A stretch of DNA of 64,000 nucleotides from Parcubacteria group bacterium LiPW_30 (GCA_007375595.1 VMEP01000001.1:557089-621088), one strand, 5' to 3'; shown: positions 10,188 through 50,354, counted from the stretch's first letter. The notes: generated by a model from the sequence alone, not told the origin. Program-made: numbers and translations.

Positions 10188-10502
10188 CTAGAAGTAGGCC
10201 ACTATGCACGTACGGGCTACGCGCTCGTCCGTGTAAACTTCCAGACTGTGCCAACAAGATACGTAATTGAAACCGTTCCAGCCGATGGGCCCCATTATCG
10301 CGCCCAAAACCCTGCTCGGCAACGAAGCGTCGCTTTTCTTGGTCGAGATGTAGGCTTCGGTGTGCATCATTGCCACTTCCACGACCGCAGGAGCCAGTAT
10401 CTTCGCCACCAACGCGTAAAAGTACGCGAGAAAAAGCAATGCAAAAATGAATGCCTTTTTCCCGTTCACTGACTTTTCCAAACGTAATTTCGGATACCTC
10501 AT
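10188..10502 (-). CDS. Small membrane protein from the GC-rich two-gene cassette
   Basis: 104 aa from MRYPKL… with SD AGGGAGAG. One or two TM helices. GC about 52%. Confidence 0.4.
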   Translation of the reverse strand: MRYPKLRLEKSVNGKKAFIFALLFLAYFYALVAKILAPAVVEVAMMHTEAYISTKKSDASLPSRVLGAIMGPIGWNGFNYVSCWHSLEVYTDERVARTCIVAYF

Positions 10503-10530
10503 GGAACTCTCCCTTGTTGATGGGGTTGGT

Positions 10531-10869
10531 TTAGCGGACGATGGTTGCAGCAAAAACCGCAGTCATCATCAACACCCAGACGACCATTATGATGCGCATA
10601 CGCCAATCACCGTTGTGAACAACCGCCAGCGAAGCGCTCATGTTGACCAAAATCATCAACGGCCAGGTTAATGTCCGCAGTGAATCAATGTTTTCGGCCG
10701 TCCACGCCATGTGCAAGGTCGGAATGAATGTCAACGGGCCCACGAGAACGAAACCCAAAAACACTTTCCCGATTTTTGTTTGCACAAACGGTAAGGTTGC
10801 CCTTGCGACTTTCTCGTTGATTGCATCCACCTTTCCCGGAATTGCCTTCACTATCTTTGGAACGTACAT
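10531..10869 (-). CDS. Membrane protein from the GC-rich two-gene cassette
   Basis: 112 aa with three predicted TM helices. Strong SD AGGGAGGATGG. GC about 52%. Confidence 0.5.
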   Translation of the reverse strand: MYVPKIVKAIPGKVDAINEKVARATLPFVQTKIGKVFLGFVLVGPLTFIPTLHMAWTAENIDSLRTLTWPLMILVNMSASLAVVHNGDWRMRIIMVVWVLMMTAVFAATIVR

Positions 10870-10943
10870 GCCATCCTCCCTTTGAGAATTGTTAAACTAC
10901 CAGAAACATTACAACTTAATATCAAAAAGTCAATAGTTAAAAA

Positions 10944-11729
10944 TTACCACAATGACGCTGTCCCCACGCTTTTTTTCTTCGGCATAACTTCTGTCACCGC
11001 CTCACGATATAAGCAGTAGTCACAGCTCTCACTTTCTTTTGGTGGCTCATCCAGCAATAAACATTTTTTAGCCCCAATAAGCGCTTCTTCTATCCAATCA
11101 TCTGAACCTTTATATGGAATAACCTTCACATCAAACTCAAGCTTGGCATCAAAAGCCTCCTTATCTGAAATACCATTGCAGTAAACGAAGTATCCCGTAT
11201 TTGAGACGATATGGTCGTTCTGACGAAGAAGCCATTGATACACTTCCATTTGACGCTTATATCCATCTTGCCACTCTGCATCTAAAGACACTTCCCCTTC
11301 TTTACTTGTCGCCTTATAATCAACAACCATAATTTCGCCAGATGGCGCTTCCCAAATATCATCCACCGCGCCAGTCACGATGAAGTTTGTTTTCTTATGT
11401 AAAAAACGCACCCCAACAAAATTGTTTCGCCAATCTTCAAGATTGTCATGCTTAAACGGCACAGCATCGATTTTATACTTCGCCATCAAAGGATGAGCCG
11501 AAGCCTTCGCTCGATAAATATCAAATTCTTTTTTGAGAAGTTTGTCGACAGCTGAGTTAAGAGAAAAAGGAAACCCTGGTGGCCTCCCTACACCCAATCT
11601 TCGATCCAAATAAAAACATCTAGGGCATTCCAAGAACAAATCTATCTTTGAACGGGAAAGGGCAAATGGTTCTGTGCTCTCTGGGCTAAATTTATTTTTT
11701 GTTCGGCGGGGATTGTAATACTGTGACAT
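10944..11729 (-). CDS. PD-(D/E)XK nuclease of the Cas4/RecB family with an Fe-S cluster
   Basis: 261 aa. N-terminal CPRC. MVVDYK matches the (D/E)xK motif. QMEVYQWLL matches the QhxxY motif. C-terminal CDYC. This is the Cas4/AddB-type nuclease domain. No CRISPR array is nearby. Confidence 0.6.
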   Translation of the reverse strand: MSQYYNPRRTKNKFSPESTEPFALSRSKIDLFLECPRCFYLDRRLGVGRPPGFPFSLNSAVDKLLKKEFDIYRAKASAHPLMAKYKIDAVPFKHDNLEDWRNNFVGVRFLHKKTNFIVTGAVDDIWEAPSGEIMVVDYKATSKEGEVSLDAEWQDGYKRQMEVYQWLLRQNDHIVSNTGYFVYCNGISDKEAFDAKLEFDVKVIPYKGSDDWIEEALIGAKKCLLLDEPPKESESCDYCLYREAVTEVMPKKKSVGTASLW

Positions 11730-11782
11730 TTTTGTGGTTTTATAATTTCCACTATTGTATACTTAATTTCACATATATAAAA

Positions 11783-12241
11783 ATGACACTTTACGAACAA
11801 CTCAAAGAAGAACTAAAGACCGCCATGAAGGCGCACGACGAAACCGCGCTAAACACCGTTCGTGGAATACTTTCCGCCTGCACAAACGAGCTCGTCGCAA
11901 CAAAACGCTCACCTCAAGAAATCTTGTGTGATGAAGATATTATTACTGTTATAAAGCGCGCCGTTAAACAAAGAAAAGATTCAGTTGAACAATACATGAA
12001 AGGAAACCGTTCTGATCTTGCACAAGTTGAAATGGCAGAGATTTCCCTTCTTGAAAAATACCTCCCGCCTACAATGGGTCGTGATGATATAGCTCGTGTT
12101 GTTAAATCAAAAATTGAAGACCTTGGCGGAATTGTTGATAAATCTAAAAAAGGGATGCTTATGGGTATAGTCATGAATGAACTAAAAGGTGTAGCAGATG
12201 GCAACGATGTTAAAGACGTTATAGATGAACTTTTGGTTTAA
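11783..12241 (+). CDS. yqeY: GatB/YqeY domain protein
   Basis: 152 aa. MTLYEQLKEELKTAMKAHDETALNTVRGILSA… fits the YqeY family. Confidence 0.75.
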   Translation: MTLYEQLKEELKTAMKAHDETALNTVRGILSACTNELVATKRSPQEILCDEDIITVIKRAVKQRKDSVEQYMKGNRSDLAQVEMAEISLLEKYLPPTMGRDDIARVVKSKIEDLGGIVDKSKKGMLMGIVMNELKGVADGNDVKDVIDELLV

Positions 12242-12337
12242 ACTTTAGTTTTTTCAGCATTTTCCCTGGTACCCGTGTATATCCTTAAATACATACATTG
12301 CGCGATGTTGTGTTTTTCTTTCTTTAGACACTAAGTT

Positions 12338-12606
12338 TTTATCTTTAAAAACATTGCGCAGACCGACGCTCAATTGCGATAAGTGAAGTAATTGAGAGAC
12401 GGAGGCTGTCGAGCCGAGTCGGGTGAGAAAGCGAAGAATGAAGCTTTCGCAAGGTCGGACTGAGCGAAGGCGAAGGAGACGGGGTCGCGAGTTTTGCTAG
12501 CAAGCAAAAACCTGTGACCACGCAAATTTCTAGCAAGAAATTATGCGTGGCGCGAGCATAGTAAAAACTTAGCAAAGTTTTATGCGTGTTTTTAAAGGTA
12601 AAAACA
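12338..12606. repeat. Composite, longest copy of the MITE-like repeat family, bounded by CTTTAAAAACA…TGTTTTTAAAG inverted repeats
   Basis: Contains three hairpin modules (TTTTGCTAGCAAGCAAAA, AAATTTCTAGCAAGAAATT, AAAACTTAGCAAAGTTTT) plus the GC-rich module (GGAGGCTGTCGAGCCGAG…GGGGTCGCGAG) that is shared with copies at 42943 and 43388. Confidence 0.6.
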
Positions 12607-12620
12607 AAAAAAGATACATT

Positions 12621-12649
12621 GACAAATCTCTGTTTTCTGTTATACTCCA
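12621..12649 (+). promoter_or_regulatory. Sigma70-like promoter (TTGACA-16 nt-TATACT)
   Basis: Consensus hexamers. The -35 region forms a 10-bp inverted repeat with the start-codon region (GACAAATCTC / GAGATTTGTC). Confidence 0.4.
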
Positions 12650-12675
12650 AAAAGATCAACTAGTGGAGATTTGTC

Positions 12676-12930
12676 ATGGCTACCACCGATTTCCAAAAAG
12701 AAATTGCTGGAAAAGTTTTTGATCAAATGGCGAAAGAGCATCTGACTTCCTTCGACGAAAAGAGGTACAGTCAAATCCTCTATCCCCTCCTCACTGCGAA
12801 CGGTGCGGTATCAGAAAGTCGCCCGTATCACTGGAGAGCAATCAAACCACTGGTGGAAAAGAAATTCAAAAACCACCAGAGCCTTGTGAAGCAACACAAA
12901 CTTCGATTCGCCGAATCTTGGGCGAAGTAA
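12676..12930 (+). CDS. Hypothetical protein encoded by a GC-rich orphan ORF
   Basis: 84 aa. SD GGAG. Terminator at 12962-12993. Confidence 0.4.
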   Translation: MATTDFQKEIAGKVFDQMAKEHLTSFDEKRYSQILYPLLTANGAVSESRPYHWRAIKPLVEKKFKNHQSLVKQHKLRFAESWAK

Positions 12931-13068
12931 AGAGACTCATGATGTGCGTAATTGTGCAAACAGCGCCCAAATTATCAGGGCGCTTATTTTTTTGCCTAAT
13001 TTTTATATACACAAAAACAAGGCCACCCAATAAGGGTGGCGAATGGAACGGTGCTGTTCATGTAGGTT

Positions 13069-13221
13069 TTACCAGCTCTCGAAGGAGTCGGTTTCGACCA
13101 TGGTGGCGAGCTCTTGCGAATTGATTTCGAGTTGGTCCACCTCATCTTCTCCGAGAAGGCCGGCGATGAATTCATCGGCCGCCAGGGTAAACTTGCCCCA
13201 CAGGTTGCTCAAAAATTTCAT
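13069..13221 (-). CDS. Small acidic ORF (50 aa, MKFLSNLWGKFTLAADEFIAGLLGEDEVDQLEINSQELATMVETDSFESW)
   Basis: SD GGAGGA 9 nt upstream. GC about 55%. Terminator hairpin GCCACCC-TTATT-GGGTGGC + T-run at 13011-13040. Confidence 0.35.
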   Translation of the reverse strand: MKFLSNLWGKFTLAADEFIAGLLGEDEVDQLEINSQELATMVETDSFESW

Positions 13222-13337
13222 GGCTATTTTCCTCCGTTTTTGTTGTACAGGATTGCTTTATTCACAGTACCACAGGAATTGAGTGATGGGAAGGGGGGAT
13301 ACTAAGTGTGTCTGTTTTTTGTGGGGGAGGTGTTTTT

Positions 13338-13979
13338 TTATTCTTTTTTTAATAACTTAATAATTTCAACAATCTCTTTATATCTACTATCTTCATCACT
13401 CCAATTTAAAAAATGGCCGCACCTCTTTGCTTTTTCTATTTCCCTTTCAACATTTTCTTTTTTAAAATCATCAGTAAAATCAACAGCCTGACCATCTTTA
13501 GAAATTCTCACATAAAACGAATTCTGTTTTATTTTATCCTCTTTCCCGTTTAATACTGACTTAGCCTCTTCGTCATATTCTGGAGTTTCAACCCAATCCC
13601 AATTTGATGATTCCCATCTACGTAAAACTTCATGAACATATATGTTAATTGCATCAGAAACCACCCTCGGTCTACTAAGTAGCGTTTTACTTTTAATCAT
13701 TTCCAAAAATTCATCCGTACTTGGGTTAAGGAACTCAAGAATAATAACCATTAATTGTTTAGAAACATGATGATTAAGAGAACTTCTTACCTCATTTGTC
13801 CATTTTAATGCACCATTTTTTACTAATTTTAATATAAATCCTTTCGCAAATTCTTCTTGTGCCAATTTTGCTAATCCATATGCTGAGGCATATCTGTCTA
13901 GGTCAAATAAATACTCAGAATCTTCTAAAAGCCTGTTTCCATTCTTTTCACAAACTTTTATTGACTGAGATAATTTCAT
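13338..13979 (-). CDS. HEPN-like protein, a putative RNase effector partner of the upstream ATPase
   Basis: 213 aa. Contains EVRSSLNHH, an Rx4H(H) motif, within a predicted helical N-terminal domain of ~100 aa. Lies 18 nt downstream of the ATPase gene on the same strand. Confidence 0.45.
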   Translation of the reverse strand: MKLSQSIKVCEKNGNRLLEDSEYLFDLDRYASAYGLAKLAQEEFAKGFILKLVKNGALKWTNEVRSSLNHHVSKQLMVIILEFLNPSTDEFLEMIKSKTLLSRPRVVSDAINIYVHEVLRRWESSNWDWVETPEYDEEAKSVLNGKEDKIKQNSFYVRISKDGQAVDFTDDFKKENVEREIEKAKRCGHFLNWSDEDSRYKEIVEIIKLLKKE

Positions 13980-13997
13980 AATAATAACAAAATCAGA

Positions 13998-16307
13998 TTA
14001 ATCAGTCGCCTTATTGATTATTTTAAAATGAGCTGGGGAAATTGCTTCCATCATCTCAAATAATTCTCTAACTACTTTTTTTGTTTCCGGCACAAGTGCT
14101 GGGTCAAACCCAGAACCAGTAATATGTGATTGATTGTTAGTGAACTTATATATTGCATCCAATTTTTGCTCATCAAACTTATCTTTTTTTAATTCTTCTA
14201 TCTTCTGATACGGTGCTCTGCCGTTCGGCACAGCAAACATTAAAAAGGTGTCCCAAACCTTTCTTGCAATATTTGGTATAAAATACGCCTTTTCTATTGA
14301 ATCGTCCTGTTCATCCCTCATTTGTTTTAATATTTTAAACAAATAGTGGTATTCGCTTTCGTAATCACATAGCTCTTTATCCATTTTCGTAATATACGCA
14401 GACCGTATATTATTCACAAAATTATTTTTAATCATATAGTACTCAGTATTTTTCTTGTTTTCACTGCTACCCTTTCTCCAGTTCATTAGCAATTTTAGGA
14501 AATCAAAACTATGGGTGAGTATAAATACTTGACCACCATCCTTTGCAGCATTTTTTAAAAAACTAAATGCTTGATATAGAGAGTTGGAATCAAGGCTTGA
14601 GATTGGATCATCCACAACAATAATTCCGTCGCTTCCCCTAAAATCCTGATCGCCAAGATGCACGACAAAATAAATAAAAGCTATGGCAGTTTTTTCCCCT
14701 TCACTCAAAAAAGAAGCCGGCTTATCCCCACGCATAATATGATACCCGGTAACAATTTCTTTTTCTTCTCCATTACCATCAGGTTCTTTTTCTATCTGGG
14801 GAACAAAAATTAACTCCTGATGTCCTAGAAATGTCGAGAGTTTCTTATTTATGTCCTCACATGCCTTATGTTTAGATGAAATCTGTGCCATATTCTCAGC
14901 AATACTCTTCCGAATGTCGGAAATTTCTGTTTCCAATAATTTAATATCTTCGTCAAGTTTTAAAATATCGGTATCAAGTTTCCTTACTTCATCAAAAATT
15001 GTACTTAAATAATGCAATTTTAGTCTCTGGATTGCTTCTTTCTTTACGTCCTCAAAATCGGAAGTTGTTTTATTATGAACCGCAATAATCTGATTTAATT
15101 CGTTTATACGCACAAAGAAGTCTTCAATATCAGGTTTTGCTTTCAAAACAAGTGTTTCTGTTGTCTTGTTTTTTTTAGACTTCAATTCTGCAATAAGTTT
15201 TGTAATGTTCGCGAGAATTTGTTGTTTCGCGGATTCAAAATTTGAACCTTTGGTATCAAAAGAATCTTGTAGGTCAGTATAAAACCTCGCCCTATCTGGA
15301 GCCTGCAGAGATTGAATGACTGGATAAATCTTTTCCAGATTATCTACCAATACATCTATGTCATCTTTCAACTTCTTATCCGCTTCATTAAAGTGTCGGG
15401 CTAACTGTTCAATACGGGCAACGGGAATTTTCTGTAGACAATATTCGCAATTATCAGATATATGTTTTTTGTGTAAATGGAATCCTTGCTCTACCCATTC
15501 CGATATATCCTCATTCAAAGCAAATCTAGAAACGATTTCCGACTCAACAGTTTTAAATAGAAGTGTCTTTGCCCTATCGTCTATTAATTTCAAAAGGTTT
15601 AAAATTTCAAATTCTTCGCCAACATCTTCATTTTTTATTTTTTTGACGGTAAGCAGGTCAATTATAGTTAAGGAATCTTGCTTTGCGGAAAGTGAGTATC
15701 TCTCAAGGTCATCAACCGACAATTCCGCTTTTGTCGTTAGAGTACTGAAGCCCATTTCTGCTTGCGGTTTTCTATAATCACGCAACGCATTTCCACCAAT
15801 CGCCGCACCAATTGTCTTTGCAATTTCAGTAAATTTTCCATCACGCTCTGTTAATTTTCGCCTCTTATCTCTTGAGTATCCCATATGCAAGAAAATCTTT
15901 CCCTTGTTTACGACATCAATCTGGTCGCCATCAAGTAATTTCTTATCATTTTCAATTTTTTCTATCAAATCCTTATTTTCCTCACCAAGTAAGACAGAGA
16001 TTGAATTTGCCCGGCTTTCAAGAATTTTTACATTATTCTGTATATAATCTTGATTGAATACACGAATTTTTTTTGGAAATACTTCGCCTTGTTTGTATTT
16101 AACCCCTTTCTCATCTTCAATCTCATATTCCAAATCTTCAACAGAAACTCCCGCTATTCCATCAAACAAACGTGATAAAGTTGTTTTTCCGCTTCCGTTC
16201 CAACCATAAACAAGATTAAACTGCTTAAAAACTGGGAGGGTAGAGTCCCGCGTGTAGTTATAAAAGACTAGCCCGAGATTTTTTATTCTGTTAATTTTAG
16301 AAATCAT
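13998..16307 (-). CDS. AAA_13/RloC-like ABC-type ATPase with a coiled-coil zinc hook
   Basis: 769 aa. The N-terminus ISKINRIKNLGLVF…FNLVYGWNGSGKTT contains Walker A. A long coiled coil carries CEYC (a CxxC zinc hook) near residue 285. LSEGEK is the ABC signature. IIVVDDPISSLD is Walker B/D-loop. ILTHS is the H-loop. The ~190-aa C-terminal domain has no known function. Confidence 0.8.
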   Translation of the reverse strand: MISKINRIKNLGLVFYNYTRDSTLPVFKQFNLVYGWNGSGKTTLSRLFDGIAGVSVEDLEYEIEDEKGVKYKQGEVFPKKIRVFNQDYIQNNVKILESRANSISVLLGEENKDLIEKIENDKKLLDGDQIDVVNKGKIFLHMGYSRDKRRKLTERDGKFTEIAKTIGAAIGGNALRDYRKPQAEMGFSTLTTKAELSVDDLERYSLSAKQDSLTIIDLLTVKKIKNEDVGEEFEILNLLKLIDDRAKTLLFKTVESEIVSRFALNEDISEWVEQGFHLHKKHISDNCEYCLQKIPVARIEQLARHFNEADKKLKDDIDVLVDNLEKIYPVIQSLQAPDRARFYTDLQDSFDTKGSNFESAKQQILANITKLIAELKSKKNKTTETLVLKAKPDIEDFFVRINELNQIIAVHNKTTSDFEDVKKEAIQRLKLHYLSTIFDEVRKLDTDILKLDEDIKLLETEISDIRKSIAENMAQISSKHKACEDINKKLSTFLGHQELIFVPQIEKEPDGNGEEKEIVTGYHIMRGDKPASFLSEGEKTAIAFIYFVVHLGDQDFRGSDGIIVVDDPISSLDSNSLYQAFSFLKNAAKDGGQVFILTHSFDFLKLLMNWRKGSSENKKNTEYYMIKNNFVNNIRSAYITKMDKELCDYESEYHYLFKILKQMRDEQDDSIEKAYFIPNIARKVWDTFLMFAVPNGRAPYQKIEELKKDKFDEQKLDAIYKFTNNQSHITGSGFDPALVPETKKVVRELFEMMEAISPAHFKIINKATD

Positions 16308-16410
16308 AAGTTTATTCTATCAGGAGCAAAAGCATAATTTTTTTCTTCAAATCATATTTCCAAACCATAAAAATTTTCCAGACCCGGACTCATTTCTACT
16401 CCGCAAATTT

Positions 16411-16579
16411 ACATGGTCACAAGTCACTAAGTTTAATCCCTACAGAGACCGCGAGTACGCTTCGGTCACGAGTTACTAAGCATTTTGGCACCATTAGCAC
16501 CAAAATACAAAATACTCGCAGTTACGCCATATTGAAGGCTACGCCTACGTAATCTGTATGGTCACAAGTCACTAAGTTT
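16411..16579. repeat. Two 22-bp direct repeats (ATGGTCACAAGTCACTAAGTTT) 147 bp apart, inside the 400-bp non-coding spacer
   Basis: Exact copies at 16411-16432 and 16558-16579. Confidence 0.6.
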
Positions 16580-16598
16580 TTTGTTCGCACTTCGTACT

Positions 16599-16656
16599 CC
16601 AAAAAACGTAAGTGCTCGCGACCCCGCCTCGCGGTTTTGTCTGCTGACAAAACATC
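16599..16656. repeat. Copy of the MITE-like repeat family (GCTCGCGACCCCGCCTCGCGG-TTTTGTCTGCTGACAAAAC)
   Basis: Has both the hairpin module and the GC module. Confidence 0.45.
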
Positions 16657-16712
16657 GCTGTGGCTTCATTCGTCTAAAAAAGTGAAGTAGTTCACTTTTC
16701 CTTAACGCCGAA

Positions 16713-16784
16713 TGACCCTACAGAGAATCGAACTCTGATTCCCGCCTTGAGAAGGCGGTGTCCTAACCGTTAGACGATAGGGCC
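16713..16784 (-). tRNA. tRNA-Glu (anticodon CTC)
   Basis: Full cloverleaf on the minus strand: acceptor GGCCCTA/TAGGGTC, D-arm GTCT/AACGGTTA/GGAC, anticodon stem CCGCC/GGCGG with loop TTCTCAA, T-arm CAGAG/TTCGATT/CTCTG, discriminator A. A terminator hairpin follows at 16676-16699. Confidence 0.85.
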
Positions 16785-16946
16785 ACTAAATCATTTTGTA
16801 CTCAAAATGATCGGGCGAACAATTTCTACTGAAATTGTTTTAGCCAAAAACACCATAAACACACATAGCTTATATTTTTTCCCCGTTTCTATCAAGTTTA
16901 AATTAACAAAGCCCGCGGTGACGCGGGCTTTCGTTCGGGTTAGCAA

Positions 16947-17138
16947 TCAACGGGGAAAAATGATTTCCCAGATGTCGCTGTAGGTTGAGAAAATCTTGTC
17001 GATGATTCCCGATCCATCCCCGTAAATACCGAGAATTGCTAAAACCGCAACAGTGACGAGAAGGATAAACAGAATCTCAATACTTCTGGTTTCCTTGCGA
17101 ATATCGGTTTCCTCACCGGGATACATGTCTGTTTCCAT
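16947..17138 (-). CDS. Small single-TM membrane protein
   Basis: 63 aa. Strong SD GGAGGAAAG-ATG. Bidirectional terminator at 16910-16940. Confidence 0.45.
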   Translation of the reverse strand: METDMYPGEETDIRKETRSIEILFILLVTVAVLAILGIYGDGSGIIDKIFSTYSDIWEIIFPR

Positions 17139-17237
17139 CTTTCCTCCAAGTTGTCTACGCCACTTGAGCCAATCTCAAATAGCTGGAACTGTTTATACTT
17201 CCATTACTTTAGAACACTAAATATTACACGTCAACTT

Positions 17238-18554
17238 CTACCTAGACTTCCATTCCTCTTCTTGCCTAACAAGAAGTTCTTTAGCTTTTTCTGGGTTTGC
17301 CATTACCTCAAGAACTGCGCGTTCCATTCTCATTCCTTGTGAACCCTTAACGAGAGCTATGTCCCCTTCTTTTATTTTTTGTTCCAAAAACTTACCAGCT
17401 TCTTTAGAGTCTTCAAATTGAAAAATTTTCTTTTCTGATAATCCAGCTATAAGTGCGCCTTCGGCGATATGTCTTGCGCGAATTCCAACAGTAATGACCA
17501 TGTCGCAAATCTTGCCCGCAATTTCACCCATTCGACGATGCTCCGTACTTGCGTGTTTACCGAGCTCAAGCATGTCTCCCAAAACTGCAATCTTTTTTGC
17601 TTTTCCTTCTAGCTTAGAAAGTGTTTCGAGCGCCGACTCCATCGCAACTGGCGATGCATTATACGTATCATCAATAATAATACTTCCCTTCACTCCTTTA
17701 ATTAATCTCAAACGTCCCGGTGCCATTTCATATGTGTGAAGCGCTTCCGCTGCGCGAACCATATTCAATTCACGAACATCAGCAACAGCAAGAGCGGAGA
17801 GCGCCGAGTAAACATGATTCATCCCGAAACCGCCGGAAAGATGCACTGGAATACTTGATCCCTTTGAATCAACGCGGAACGTTATTCCAAGTGGATATCC
17901 ATCATTTTCATCTTTTTTGTATTCAATATTTTCATATGAAGCTACAAGTGTCGCATCTTTACTAAAACCATAACTCTCCGTTCGGTTTTTTATTTTTTCC
18001 TTAAGAGACATCACGTCCTCATCGTCTGCGTTTAAAATAATCGTCCCGTTTTTTGATACAGCGTGCGCAAGCTCCCCTTTTTCGGCTTTAACAGCTTCAG
18101 GCGACTCAAAAAACTCCACGTGTGCTGGAACCTTACTCAAACGAGTAATTATTGCTATGTCTGGTTTAATCCAAGAAGCTGTTTTTTTAATATCTCCTGG
18201 GCGGTCGGCACCAACCTCAAGGACAAGCCATTCTGGATATGGTTTTTTTTGAATCAAAAGCGAGATTCCGTCTAAAAAATTCTTAATCCACATAAGTGGA
18301 TTATTCCAAGCATTAGGACAACCAATCACGGTAAGGGGGATTCCAATTTCACTATTAAAACTTTTTTCACTTTTCCTGGTTTTATAAAAATGAGACAAAA
18401 CTGCATAAACAGCATCTTTAGACGAAGTCTTTCCAACGGTACCAGTAATCGCCACAATTTTAGGTTTGTATTTTTTTAAAATAAGACGCGCTTCTAGTGT
18501 TAGAACCGCAACTGTTATCTTTTTTAAAAGTGTCTTTAAAAACTTCATATTCAA
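17238..18554 (-). CDS. murF: UDP-N-acetylmuramoyl-tripeptide--D-alanyl-D-alanine ligase
   Basis: Mur ligase P-loop (VAITGTVGKTSSKDA) and DDTYNASP (MurF-type YNANP motif). Sits in the dcw cluster after ftsI. Confidence 0.75.
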   Translation of the reverse strand: MNMKFLKTLLKKITVAVLTLEARLILKKYKPKIVAITGTVGKTSSKDAVYAVLSHFYKTRKSEKSFNSEIGIPLTVIGCPNAWNNPLMWIKNFLDGISLLIQKKPYPEWLVLEVGADRPGDIKKTASWIKPDIAIITRLSKVPAHVEFFESPEAVKAEKGELAHAVSKNGTIILNADDEDVMSLKEKIKNRTESYGFSKDATLVASYENIEYKKDENDGYPLGITFRVDSKGSSIPVHLSGGFGMNHVYSALSALAVADVRELNMVRAAEALHTYEMAPGRLRLIKGVKGSIIIDDTYNASPVAMESALETLSKLEGKAKKIAVLGDMLELGKHASTEHRRMGEIAGKICDMVITVGIRARHIAEGALIAGLSEKKIFQFEDSKEAGKFLEQKIKEGDIALVKGSQGMRMERAVLEVMANPEKAKELLVRQEEEWKSR

Positions 18555-24496: not shown

Positions 24497-24570
24497 AATT
24501 GGCCAATTATACCGTTTTTATAAAAAAAGTGAAAATCATAATGATTTTTTATTGTATTCTTTACTTTTTC

Positions 24571-24640
24571 TTTTAAAAAACACGATAAAATTCTGCTGAA
24601 TTTTTCTCTACTCGCCTCGTCAGGCTCCGTAAGGTTTTTC
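24571..24640. repeat. Copy of the MITE-like repeat family (TTTTAAAAAACACGATAAAATTCTGCTGAATTTTT…GCTCCGTAAGG)
   Basis: Near-identical over ~40 bp to the copy at 50270. Confidence 0.55.
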
Positions 24641-32178: not shown

Positions 32179-32730
32179 TTAATTAAAAATATCCTTTTCT
32201 TTTCTTTCCGTGAATTCCAGAAGACGGGAATTTGCTTCATCAACTAATTTCTGAAGTTCATCTTTATATCTAAACCTTTCGTCTTCTGTGATTAAGCCGT
32301 CCTTTTCCTGTGACTGAATATCACTCCAAACTTTTTCTCTTTCTGTTCTCACCGAAATACGAGCTTCTTCTAGTTTGCTTTTTGATAATTTAACAAGCAT
32401 TTCTCGGCGCTCTGAAGAAAGCTGTGGAAAAGACACACGAAGACCTTCGTCGTCTGTTGAAACAGAAAGACCTAAATTTGCAGCCGAAATAGCGCGCTCA
32501 ACTTCTTTAACGTGAGTTTTATCCCAGGGAGAAATACGAAGAGTGCGAGGATCTTCAACAGAGACAGTCGCCACATGTTCAATCGGAGTTCTTGCTCCAT
32601 ATGCTTCAACTAAAACACCGTCCAAAATTGCGGGGTTGGCGCGTCCAGTATGAAGAGATGCAAACTCGTGAAGTAACCACTCATCTACTTTTTTTAATTC
32701 ATCTTTAAATTGTTGAAAACTGTATGCCAT
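32179..32730 (-). CDS. frr: Ribosome recycling factor
   Basis: 183 aa, canonical RRF sequence. Confidence 0.9.
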   Translation of the reverse strand: MAYSFQQFKDELKKVDEWLLHEFASLHTGRANPAILDGVLVEAYGARTPIEHVATVSVEDPRTLRISPWDKTHVKEVERAISAANLGLSVSTDDEGLRVSFPQLSSERREMLVKLSKSKLEEARISVRTEREKVWSDIQSQEKDGLITEDERFRYKDELQKLVDEANSRLLEFTERKEKDIFN

Positions 32731-32786
32731 GTTGAGCTGTAGTATAAGGTATTTTTTAAGGAATTTAAAGTTTTTTTACATTTATC

Positions 32787-32858
32787 TTTAAAAACGCGCA
32801 TAAAACTTTGCTAAGTTTTTGCTATGCTCGTGCCGTCGCACTACGCAATGTTTTTAAA
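32787..32858. repeat. Copy of the MITE-like repeat family (CTTTAAAAACGCGCATAAAACTTTGCTAAGTTTTTGCTATGCTCG…GCAATGTTTTTAAA)
   Basis: TIR TTTAAAAAC. Near-identical to the 12545-12606 segment in reverse complement. Confidence 0.6.
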
Positions 32859-34211: not shown

Positions 34212-34251
34212 ATTTACCTAAAAATTTTATATATCTTTTTTTAAAATACCC

Positions 34252-34324
34252 TTAAAAAACACGTATAATTTTCTGCTGAAAATTTACTATGCTCGCGCCG
34301 GTCGCGCTCCGCAATGTTTTTTAA
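34252..34324. repeat. Copy of the MITE-like repeat family with a perfect 10-bp TIR (TTAAAAAACA…TGTTTTTTAA)
   Basis: Core CACGTATAATTTTCTGCTGAAAATTTACTATGCTCGCGCC. Confidence 0.6.
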
Positions 34325-50150: not shown

Positions 50151-50269
50151 TACTTAAATGTATACAAAAAACTCCGCATAATAGCGGAGTTTTTTGTTGC
50201 CCAAATATCATAAAATGTCTCACTCTAAACTTAAGTGTTTAATTAAAATATTCGTGTTTATTTTTTTGC

Positions 50270-50354
50270 TTTTGCTGATAAAAAACACGATAAAATTCTG
50301 CTGAATTTTTCTATACTCGCGCCAAGCGCTCCGTAATGTTTTTTATCAGCAAAA
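50270..50354. repeat. Copy of the MITE-like repeat family with a perfect 18-bp TIR (TTTTGCTGATAAAAAACA…TGTTTTTTATCAGCAAAA)
   Basis: Core CACGATAAAATTCTGCTGAATTTTTCTATACTCGCGCC. Confidence 0.65.

Follow-up and report, generated by a model that had tools for sequence, protein, structure and literature searches.

A predicted RloC-type anticodon nuclease gene in tandem with an AbiV-family HEPN gene in a Parcubacteria bacterium: a recurrent, facultative pairing

Anticodon nucleases of the RloC and PrrC type and the HEPN RNase AbiV are the closest described relatives of two adjacent genes in a 64,000-nucleotide stretch of DNA from Parcubacteria group bacterium LiPW_30 (GCA_007375595.1 VMEP01000001.1:557089-621088), which we refer to as the window. 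RloC, a tRNase that excises the wobble nucleotide under regulation by its zinc hook and its DNA-dependent ATPase, is defined by ABC motifs, a coiled-coil insert bearing a CxxC zinc hook, a length of 658-897 aa and a C-terminal Arg-X3-Glu-X36-52-His motif in which Ser often precedes the His (Davidov & Kaufmann 2008, PMC2610378). In the Geobacillus enzyme the zinc hook lies at C291, and R692, E696 and H737 are each essential to activity (PMC2610378). RloC is described as an enzyme silenced by its ATPase and zinc hook until DNA damage or foreign ends are met, at which point tRNA is cut (PMC2610378, PMC3458546, PMC3874168). PrrC, from the EcoprrI type I restriction-modification (R-M) locus of E. 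coli, is likewise a fusion: its ABC ATPase is followed at the C-terminus by a HEPN anticodon nuclease whose triad is Arg/Glu/His. AbiV of Lactococcus is an rRNA-cleaving HEPN RNase that is checked by an RNA antitoxin, abiV2, encoded directly upstream. Its phage trigger is SaV (Zhu et al. 2024, bioRxiv 10.1101/2024.05.05.592566; PDB 9bj5-9bj7). A further relative is PDC-S06, an AAA_13 ATPase that PADLOC defines as a single-gene candidate and that is uncharacterised in the papers mentioning it. In the window, a gene of the first kind is followed directly by a gene of the second, and we consider it likely that two abortive-infection RNase genes, each of a separately known kind, here form a tandem that is probably read as one transcript, and that they are not the halves of a split enzyme.

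The two reading frames, of 769 and 213 aa, lie on the same strand 18 nt apart; their coordinates and the motifs that an earlier note on this DNA had quoted for both proteins were confirmed, the motifs by translation (Table 1). Both products are identical to database entries for hypothetical proteins of the same bacterium (LiPW30_593 and LiPW30_592). Pfam AAA_13 spans the whole of the larger protein (E=1.8e-122, profile positions 8-713 of 713). SMC_N reaches only 29.8 bits, under its cut-off of 40, and the protein is therefore not a housekeeping ATPase of the SMC/RecN kind, as the earlier note had also held in calling it RloC/AAA_13-like. The PDC-S06 model (PDLC04894) matches it end to end (E=3e-225, positions 1-737 of 740), and matches to AriA, LmuB and AbiLi in the same PADLOC search are weak. 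Conservation of its residues was counted over 80 homologues, in which the motifs of the ATPase head and both hook cysteines are fixed or nearly so (Table 1). The CEYC hook sits midway between Walker A and the ABC signature, and its C287 is collinear with C291 of Geobacillus kaustophilus RloC (GkaRloC; published residue number, PMC2610378); Pfam coiled-coil families match weakly, over residues 430-492 only. When the ATPase sequence was searched against the PDB, Rad50 was the sole match (E about 1e-3), and no solved structure of RloC or PrrC came up.

Whether this ATPase has a nuclease of its own decides how the locus is to be read. The PADLOC PrrC model aligns to residues 555-754 and thus extends into the PrrC nuclease region, and for this reason we looked for a nuclease domain in the ATPase itself. 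Its tail, R682-KVW-D686-x41-S727-H728, fits the published RloC motif with Asp in place of Glu (PMC2610378), and the C-terminal domain is of the HEPN type described for RloC nucleases (Anantharaman et al. 2013). Among the 80 homologues the Arg is invariant (80/80), position 686 is always acidic (Glu in 67/80, Asp in 13/80) and the Ser-His pair is present in 73/80. When published residue numbers are compared, C287, R682, D686 and H728 of the window protein run collinear with C291, R692, E696 and H737 of GkaRloC, offset by 4-10 residues. An Asp at position 686 was considered as a marker of pairing with AbiV and rejected: the unpaired ATPase P0060/L170 has Asp, the paired ATPases of L156 and L166 have Glu, and there is no correlation (L and P numbers are our labels for individual loci). 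The window ATPase is a complete RloC-type fusion with its own C-terminal HEPN domain of the anticodon-nuclease type, and its nuclease activity is predicted. It resembles the RloC proteins of G. kaustophilus and Acinetobacter baylyi in size, in its ABC motifs, in the position of the CxxC and in the C-terminal Arg-x3-acid-x41-Ser-His; other likenesses are the frequent location of its relatives within type I R-M operons and the lack of a strong ribosome-binding site. It differs from them in its Asp, in having an AbiV-family HEPN gene next in the operon, which is undescribed for RloC, and in its host, a bacterium of the candidate phyla radiation. PrrC, in contrast, is half the size (341-416 aa), has no coiled-coil/zinc-hook insert and is always R-M-linked, whereas the window ATPase gene lies outside any R-M locus.

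The presence of this domain bears directly on the arrangement that the earlier note had proposed, where an RloC/PrrC-like ATPase without a nuclease would sense infection and govern a separate HEPN protein, the sole effector. The note had overlooked the HEPN domain at about residues 645-769. Since the ATPase keeps a HEPN-fold domain and the R/D/SH triad, the small protein is a second HEPN and not a detached nuclease. The same triad is kept by every alignable ATPase that is linked to an AbiV gene elsewhere (L081, L083, L085, L156, L161 and L166). A split system would account for the tight same-strand adjacency and for the repeated linkage of AAA_13-type ATPases to this AbiV subfamily, and two linked ATPases do depart from the fusion pattern: that of L149 has no triad, and in the AAA_13 protein of L163 the canonical C-terminal portion of the Pfam profile is missing. 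Set against these points, and in addition to the triads, are the absence of an AbiV gene from all 80 ATPase loci, the treatment of the ATPase as a single-gene candidate by PADLOC and the existence of AbiV-like genes at 70% identity that have no ATPase. For the window locus we regard the split reading as largely refuted and very unlikely to be right. A truly split ATPase plus HEPN arrangement may occur elsewhere. The candidate is L149, in which a 682-aa ATPase of the SMC_N/AAA_13 kind, equipped with a CPLC hook, stops 92 aa beyond Walker B, as its reading frame was called, directly upstream of an AbiV-like gene and without an R-x3-[ED]...SH tail.

The small protein had been read as HEPN-like from its motif, and profiles and structure prediction now place it in the AbiV family. 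Pfam HEPN_AbiV (PF18728) matches at E=3.8e-14 (53.6 bits, cut-off 27.1) and NCBIfam AbiV_defense (TIGR04498) at 51.3 bits (cut-off 27); the PADLOC AbiV model gives only E=3.4e-4. Its AlphaFold2 model shows a four-helix HEPN core like that in the AbiV crystal structures and has a mean predicted local distance difference test score of 94.4, and a Foldseek search of the PDB with this model returned AbiV chains of 9bj5, 9bj6 and 9bj7 as the best 22 matches (probability 1.00, target-normalised TM scores 0.48-0.60), followed by the HEPN proteins 1ufb, 2hsb and 1wol. Relatives of the protein carry the AbiV-family label at NCBI and JGI. Residues that are invariant in an alignment of 27 relatives include E42, E43, K46, H71, K74 and Q75. 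The Rx4HH motif of the earlier note is present as RSSLNHH, and of its two histidines H70 varies and H71 alone is invariant; the Arg stands at 65 or 66. H71 aligns with H93 of Lactococcus AbiV, inside 91-RNHKSKH-97, and not with H97. The Rx4-6H motif, R91/H97 in Lactococcus AbiV, is itself not strictly kept across the family (Zhu et al. 2024, bioRxiv 10.1101/2024.05.05.592566). Family, fold, a length of about 200 aa and conserved C..G..D, EE..K and H..K elements are shared with AbiV of L. cremoris MG1363. The two differ in their Arg/His spacing, in their low identity (about 13% in structural alignments) and in what lies upstream, the abiV2 RNA in Lactococcus and an RloC-type gene in the window. 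Sequence profiles and the predicted fold together identify the 213-aa protein as an AbiV-family HEPN and a predicted RNase.

Several observations weigh against this account of the two proteins and of their association. The Foldseek E-values are modest (1e-2 and above) and the TM scores are 0.46-0.60, while sequence similarity to Lactococcus AbiV is weak (E about 0.3 against PDB sequences). The Arg column is unfixed, R65-x5-H71 in the window protein and R66-x4-H71 in most relatives. No abiV2-like small reading frame or RNA was found at the AbiV-like gene, the upstream position being filled by the 3' end of the ATPase gene. In the ATPase the triad acid is Asp, whereas it is Glu in characterised RloC. 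The evidence for cooperation of the two genes, which we infer, is their linkage, and the census of neighbours described below was made from open reading frame (ORF) calls and BLAST clustering over about 90 metagenomic loci, many of them short. With regard to the antitoxin, an Rfam search of 10500-17500 at E<=1 gave no match except the tRNA, the non-coding DNA on the flanks resembles nothing in the related loci, and RNA structure in the region downstream of the AbiV-like gene is not unusual (z=-1.3). The abiV2 RNA antitoxin is a trait of the Lactococcus system and not of the AbiV protein family.

The two genes are probably on one transcript, because the 18-nt spacer between them contains neither a terminator nor a Shine-Dalgarno sequence. 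At related loci the junction is tighter still, with a 2-nt gap in L161 and a 4-nt overlap in L166, and such stop/start overlaps imply co-expression. The composition of the two genes differs: GC content at third codon positions (GC3) is genome-typical for the ATPase gene (z about 0), and it marks out the AbiV-like gene as unusually AT-rich (z about -3).

To ask how often the pair occurs we examined 80 genome loci anchored on the ATPase and 80 metagenome loci anchored on the HEPN protein, scanning all ORFs with both profiles. The earlier note had expected the pair to be conserved together. Seen from the ATPase it is not: no AbiV-like ORF lies within 6 kb at any of the 80 genome loci, including that of a 67%-identical Verrucomicrobiota copy, a zero count that we accepted after the HEPN profile had been confirmed to work on its 80 positive-control loci. 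Solo ATPases are often found in type I R-M operons, in the order HsdS-ATPase-HsdR (L016) or Abi_C-ATPase-HsdR (L019); another has a HARE-HTH/PD-(D/E)XK neighbour (L170), and L171 has none. Seen from the AbiV subfamily, the expectation was borne out in part, as linkage is recurrent. AAA_13/SMC_N-type ABC ATPases are the same-strand upstream neighbour in 14/65 cases, with three more downstream and two nearby. The pair is adjacent in the window and in L082, L083, L085, L156, L161 and L166, whereas L081 has a PIF1-like helicase gene between the two and L163 has two intervening genes, one with NOV_C. In a rough neighbour-joining tree of the AbiV-like proteins the ATPase-linked members fall on five or six branches and make up 8/14 members of the window clade. 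Linkage of RloC-type and AbiV genes is real, recurrent and facultative, and commoner than chance.

How much this linkage means is best judged against the possibility that two independent single-gene defence systems are mere neighbours, brought together by the clustering of defence genes and the insertion of small cassettes at operon 3' ends. Each gene indeed occurs solo at about 70% identity, and so neither requires the other. AbiV-like genes without an ATPase exist at 67-70% identity, one of them amid housekeeping genes (L168), and AbiV-like genes also follow a methylase-GmrSD-DpnII-methylase array (L172 and L084), a 296-aa gene of no known family (L173), Mrr or an AbiV paralogue. Among plasmids, the collection searched holds two distant AbiV genes only, both solo, and the phage collection gave no match. 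Moreover, the partners do not co-diverge: relative to the window, the ATPase and HEPN identities are 47% and 75% in L081 and 29% and 55% in L166, and in L163 the HEPN is 62% identical with an ATPase that is barely alignable. From this lack of co-divergence and the difference in GC3, the AbiV-like gene is best described as a mobile cassette that has repeatedly landed, or been kept, behind AAA_13 ATPases and not as part of a co-evolving two-subunit enzyme. Chance proximity is harder to reconcile with the census, in which ATPases of the AAA_13 type adjoin about 1 in 5 loci, far more than any other neighbour, and every other family recurs at most 2-3 times. Nor does it sit easily with the breadth of the linkage, which involves both gene orders and, among upstream ATPases, two BLAST clusters and at least four divergent lineages, or with the co-expression that the overlaps imply. 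We consider mere neighbourhood unlikely, though well worth keeping in mind, and favor a tandem of two known RNase genes that are expressed together.

Several related loci show what else can occupy these positions. In L170 (7301-8068) a HARE-HTH plus PD-(D/E)XK/Mrr-like protein is encoded 2 nt after a 71%-identical ATPase, in place of AbiV, in surroundings of the conjugative-element type (TraC/TraG, EcoRI methylase, GmrSD_N/HNH); the slot downstream of such ATPases therefore takes various small nuclease cassettes. The locus L163 (3551-9538; also L164 and L165) contains a five-gene same-strand array of a divergent AAA_13 ATPase (803 aa), a 253-aa protein, a NOV_C protein, an AbiV-like HEPN and a 293-aa protein. 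It adjoins DNA methyltransferases and a phage terminase gene and may be a larger prophage-borne defence operon. In L117 and L118 two AbiV-family HEPN paralogues stand in tandem, the upstream one a 167-aa protein with a HEPN_AbiV match of E=4e-25, which suggests that heterodimeric AbiV pairs are possible. Finally, in L016 (5771-9364), from Candidatus Omnitrophus magneticus, the HsdR downstream of a solo RloC-like ATPase carries a LexA-like Peptidase_S24 domain at its C-terminus (residues 1071-1192), an unusual fusion that might couple restriction to a self-cleaving switch of the DNA-damage type.

HEPN nucleases are dimers with composite active sites. It is conceivable that one protein of the pair regulates the other, either because the AbiV-like HEPN masks or activates the HEPN domain or head of the ATPase, or because the ATPase silences an AbiV-like toxin. 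EcoprrI masking PrrC and the antitoxins of HEPN toxins offer analogies, and the linkage recurs across ATPase lineages. The upstream position, which in Lactococcus houses the RNA antitoxin, is here taken by the ATPase 3' end with no equivalent RNA found. In addition, other cellular effectors have been proposed as possible regulators of AbiV through the flexible Rx4-6H segment (Zhu et al. 2024, bioRxiv 10.1101/2024.05.05.592566). However, solo AbiV-like genes at 70% identity indicate that the protein is tolerated without an ATPase, and the invariance of the putative catalytic residues H71, E42/E43 and K46 favors an active enzyme, so that a regulatory partnership seems to us rather improbable. 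A broader version of this idea would be an undescribed two-gene "RloC-AbiV" defence module, in which AbiV-like HEPNs serve AAA_13/RloC-type ATPases as dedicated partners in trans. On sensing infection the ATPase, taking the place of the Lactococcus RNA antitoxin, would license two RNases, its own anticodon nuclease and the AbiV-like enzyme; in tail-less lineages such as L149 only the separate HEPN would be licensed, and sensor and effector would then be truly split. We put this forward as a speculation, with less than even prospects.

For the tandem of two RNases we can sketch a mechanism by analogy with the described systems. As in the RloC proteins of Geobacillus and Acinetobacter, the ATPase/zinc-hook region would keep the nuclease inactive until DNA damage, or DNA ends of phage origin, had been detected; the RloC-type HEPN domain would then cut tRNA anticodon loops and translation would stop. 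A dimer of the AbiV-like HEPN may, like Lactococcus AbiV, cleave rRNA or other RNA. The pairing would most likely supply a second, differently targeted RNase that is co-expressed with the first, and two such RNases could make the shut-off of translation harder for a phage to reverse by tRNA repair or phage tRNAs. In this scheme we infer which RNAs are cut, what triggers the cutting and any coupling of the two proteins, be it physical or regulatory. HEPN genes often lie beside other RNases and R-M genes in "multi-pronged" defence, possibly defeating phage RNA repair (Anantharaman et al. 2013), and the RloC-type/AbiV pair fits this theme.

In several described defence systems, among them PARIS (AriA/AriB), Septu, Gabija, AbiL/RloAB and Lamassu, a gene for an ABC/SMC-type ATPase likewise precedes a small gene for a nuclease. 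Their ATPases contain no nuclease, which the partner supplies in the form of Toprim/OLD, HNH or another DNase. The window pair departs from this pattern: its ATPase comes fused to a nuclease domain, the second gene encodes a HEPN RNase, and the two families are associated only facultatively. With respect to PDC-S06, the window ATPase is an end-to-end match and the difference is that an AbiV-like gene comes after it.

Table 1. Features of the ATPase/AbiV-like locus and its surroundings (positions in the window; conservation among 80 ATPase homologues)
Feature	Position	Strand	Remarks
RloC-type ATPase ORF	13998..16307	-	769 aa
Walker A GWNGSGKTT	16179-16205	-	residues 35-43; K41 in 79/80
Zinc-hook CxxC, CEYC	15438-15449	-	residues 287-290; both Cys in 80/80
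Signature, Walker B/D-loop and H-loop block	14508..14708	-	residues 534-600
ABC signature LSEGEK	14691-14708	-	residues 534-539; from translation
Walker B/D-loop IIVVDDPISSLD	14589-14624	-	D567 in 80/80
H-loop ILTHS	14508-14522	-	H599 in 80/80
C-terminal HEPN-fold nuclease domain	14001..14375	-	ATPase residues ~645-769
R682	14262-14264	-	nuclease triad
D686	14250-14252	-	nuclease triad
S727-H728	14124-14129	-	nuclease triad
Intergenic spacer TCTGATTTTGTTATTATT	13980..13997	-	18 nt
AbiV-family HEPN ORF	13338..13979	-	213 aa
Ex3K element E42-K46	within 13842-13859	-	213-aa protein
RSSLNHH (R65...H71)	13767-13787	-	213-aa protein
tRNA-Glu(CTC)	16712-16785	-	404 nt upstream of ATPase start
50-aa ORF MKFLSNLWGKFTLAADEFIAGLLGEDEVDQLEINSQELATMVETDSFESW	13069-13221	-	very acidic; just downstream of AbiV-like gene
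Hairpin + T-run terminator	13022-13040	-	of 50-aa ORF
29-nt direct repeat AAACTTAGTGACTTGTGACCAT...	16406-16434; 16551-16579	-	minus-strand sequence; 90% identical, 145 nt apart
Partial third copy of 29-nt repeat	12326-12340		
Dispersed element copy	12549-12620	+	
Dispersed element copies	32771-32834; 34229-34299; 50255-50327; 24543-24615	-	
GC-richer stretch	12345-12560		~200 nt
Inverted repeat I2	12335-12353 / 12587-12605		19 nt; flanks GC-richer stretch

The genes around the locus are ordinary or housekeeping (a Mur ligase, a penicillin-binding protein, YqeY and a PD-(D/E)XK nuclease), and the ATPase/AbiV-like locus is a small insertion-like patch and not a large defence island. The tRNA-Glu that the earlier note had placed beside the operon is there, on the strand shared by both ORFs; adjacency to a tRNA was rejected as a functional trait since it did not recur in the 16 related loci scanned. 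We claim no attachment (att) sites: a search for direct repeats derived from the tRNA on either side of the module gave matches only 14-16 nt long (D10, 12326/16567; inverted I6, 12476/16615), and matches of this length are abundant by chance in AT-rich DNA. Nor do we claim a promoter from scanning, as sigma-70-like sites were no more numerous than in shuffled sequence. A 29-nt direct repeat has both full copies within the 404-nt leader between the tRNA-Glu and the ATPase gene and holds a GTGAC-TT-GTGAC direct repeat; it could be a regulatory duplication of an operator or promoter.

The "repeat scars" of the earlier note turned out to be mostly copies of a genome-wide promoter-like element. 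This dispersed element of ~65-75 nt, with the consensus ...GCGAGCATAG-AAAAAYTYAGCARARTTTTAT-CGYGTTTTTTAAAG..., lies directly upstream of gene starts, among them those of the ORFs at 32730 and 34211 and of an 84-aa ORF at 12676. Rfam gave no match to it within the region searched, and it looks like a genome-typical promoter or leader of this Parcubacteria genome. One copy has seemingly received an insertion, the GC-richer stretch of Table 1, which matches no Rfam family. Of the "GC-rich orphan ORFs" in that note, one is the 50-aa ORF, which has a GC3 of 0.72 against 0.31 for window genes (z about +13) and a strong GGAGG ribosome-binding site 9 nt upstream. With its own terminator it resembles a foreign mini-gene. 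The 50-aa and 84-aa ORFs were rejected as a third component of the module, having no counterpart in 173 related loci and no Pfam match.

In kind, both genes are familiar: anticodon nucleases of the RloC/PrrC type, like the AbiV HEPN RNases, are well established as effectors of abortive infection, and annotation tools now in use name both. The recurrent tandem of an RloC-type gene with AbiV is a modest novelty. "Undescribed", the word of the earlier note, is fair for this recurrent linkage and too strong for the components, which already bear PDC-S06 and AbiV labels. In the literature searched we found no paper linking RloC and AbiV, and the 2013 HEPN survey gives no genomic association for AbiV (Anantharaman et al.). 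One practical lesson is that a HEPN gene beside an AAA_13/PDC-S06 protein of the present type should not be taken for its missing nuclease, because the ATPase carries its own. Another point of interest is that one AbiV subfamily has repeatedly become attached to ATPases of the AAA_13 type that belong to different lineages. In a genome as small as that of the Parcubacteria host, the retention of any defence gene deserves attention. Should the two RNases cooperate, they would offer a simple model of layered translation shut-off, at tRNA and at rRNA, that resists tRNA repair by phages or phage tRNAs, and this might explain how AbiV-type toxins are controlled outside Lactococcus.

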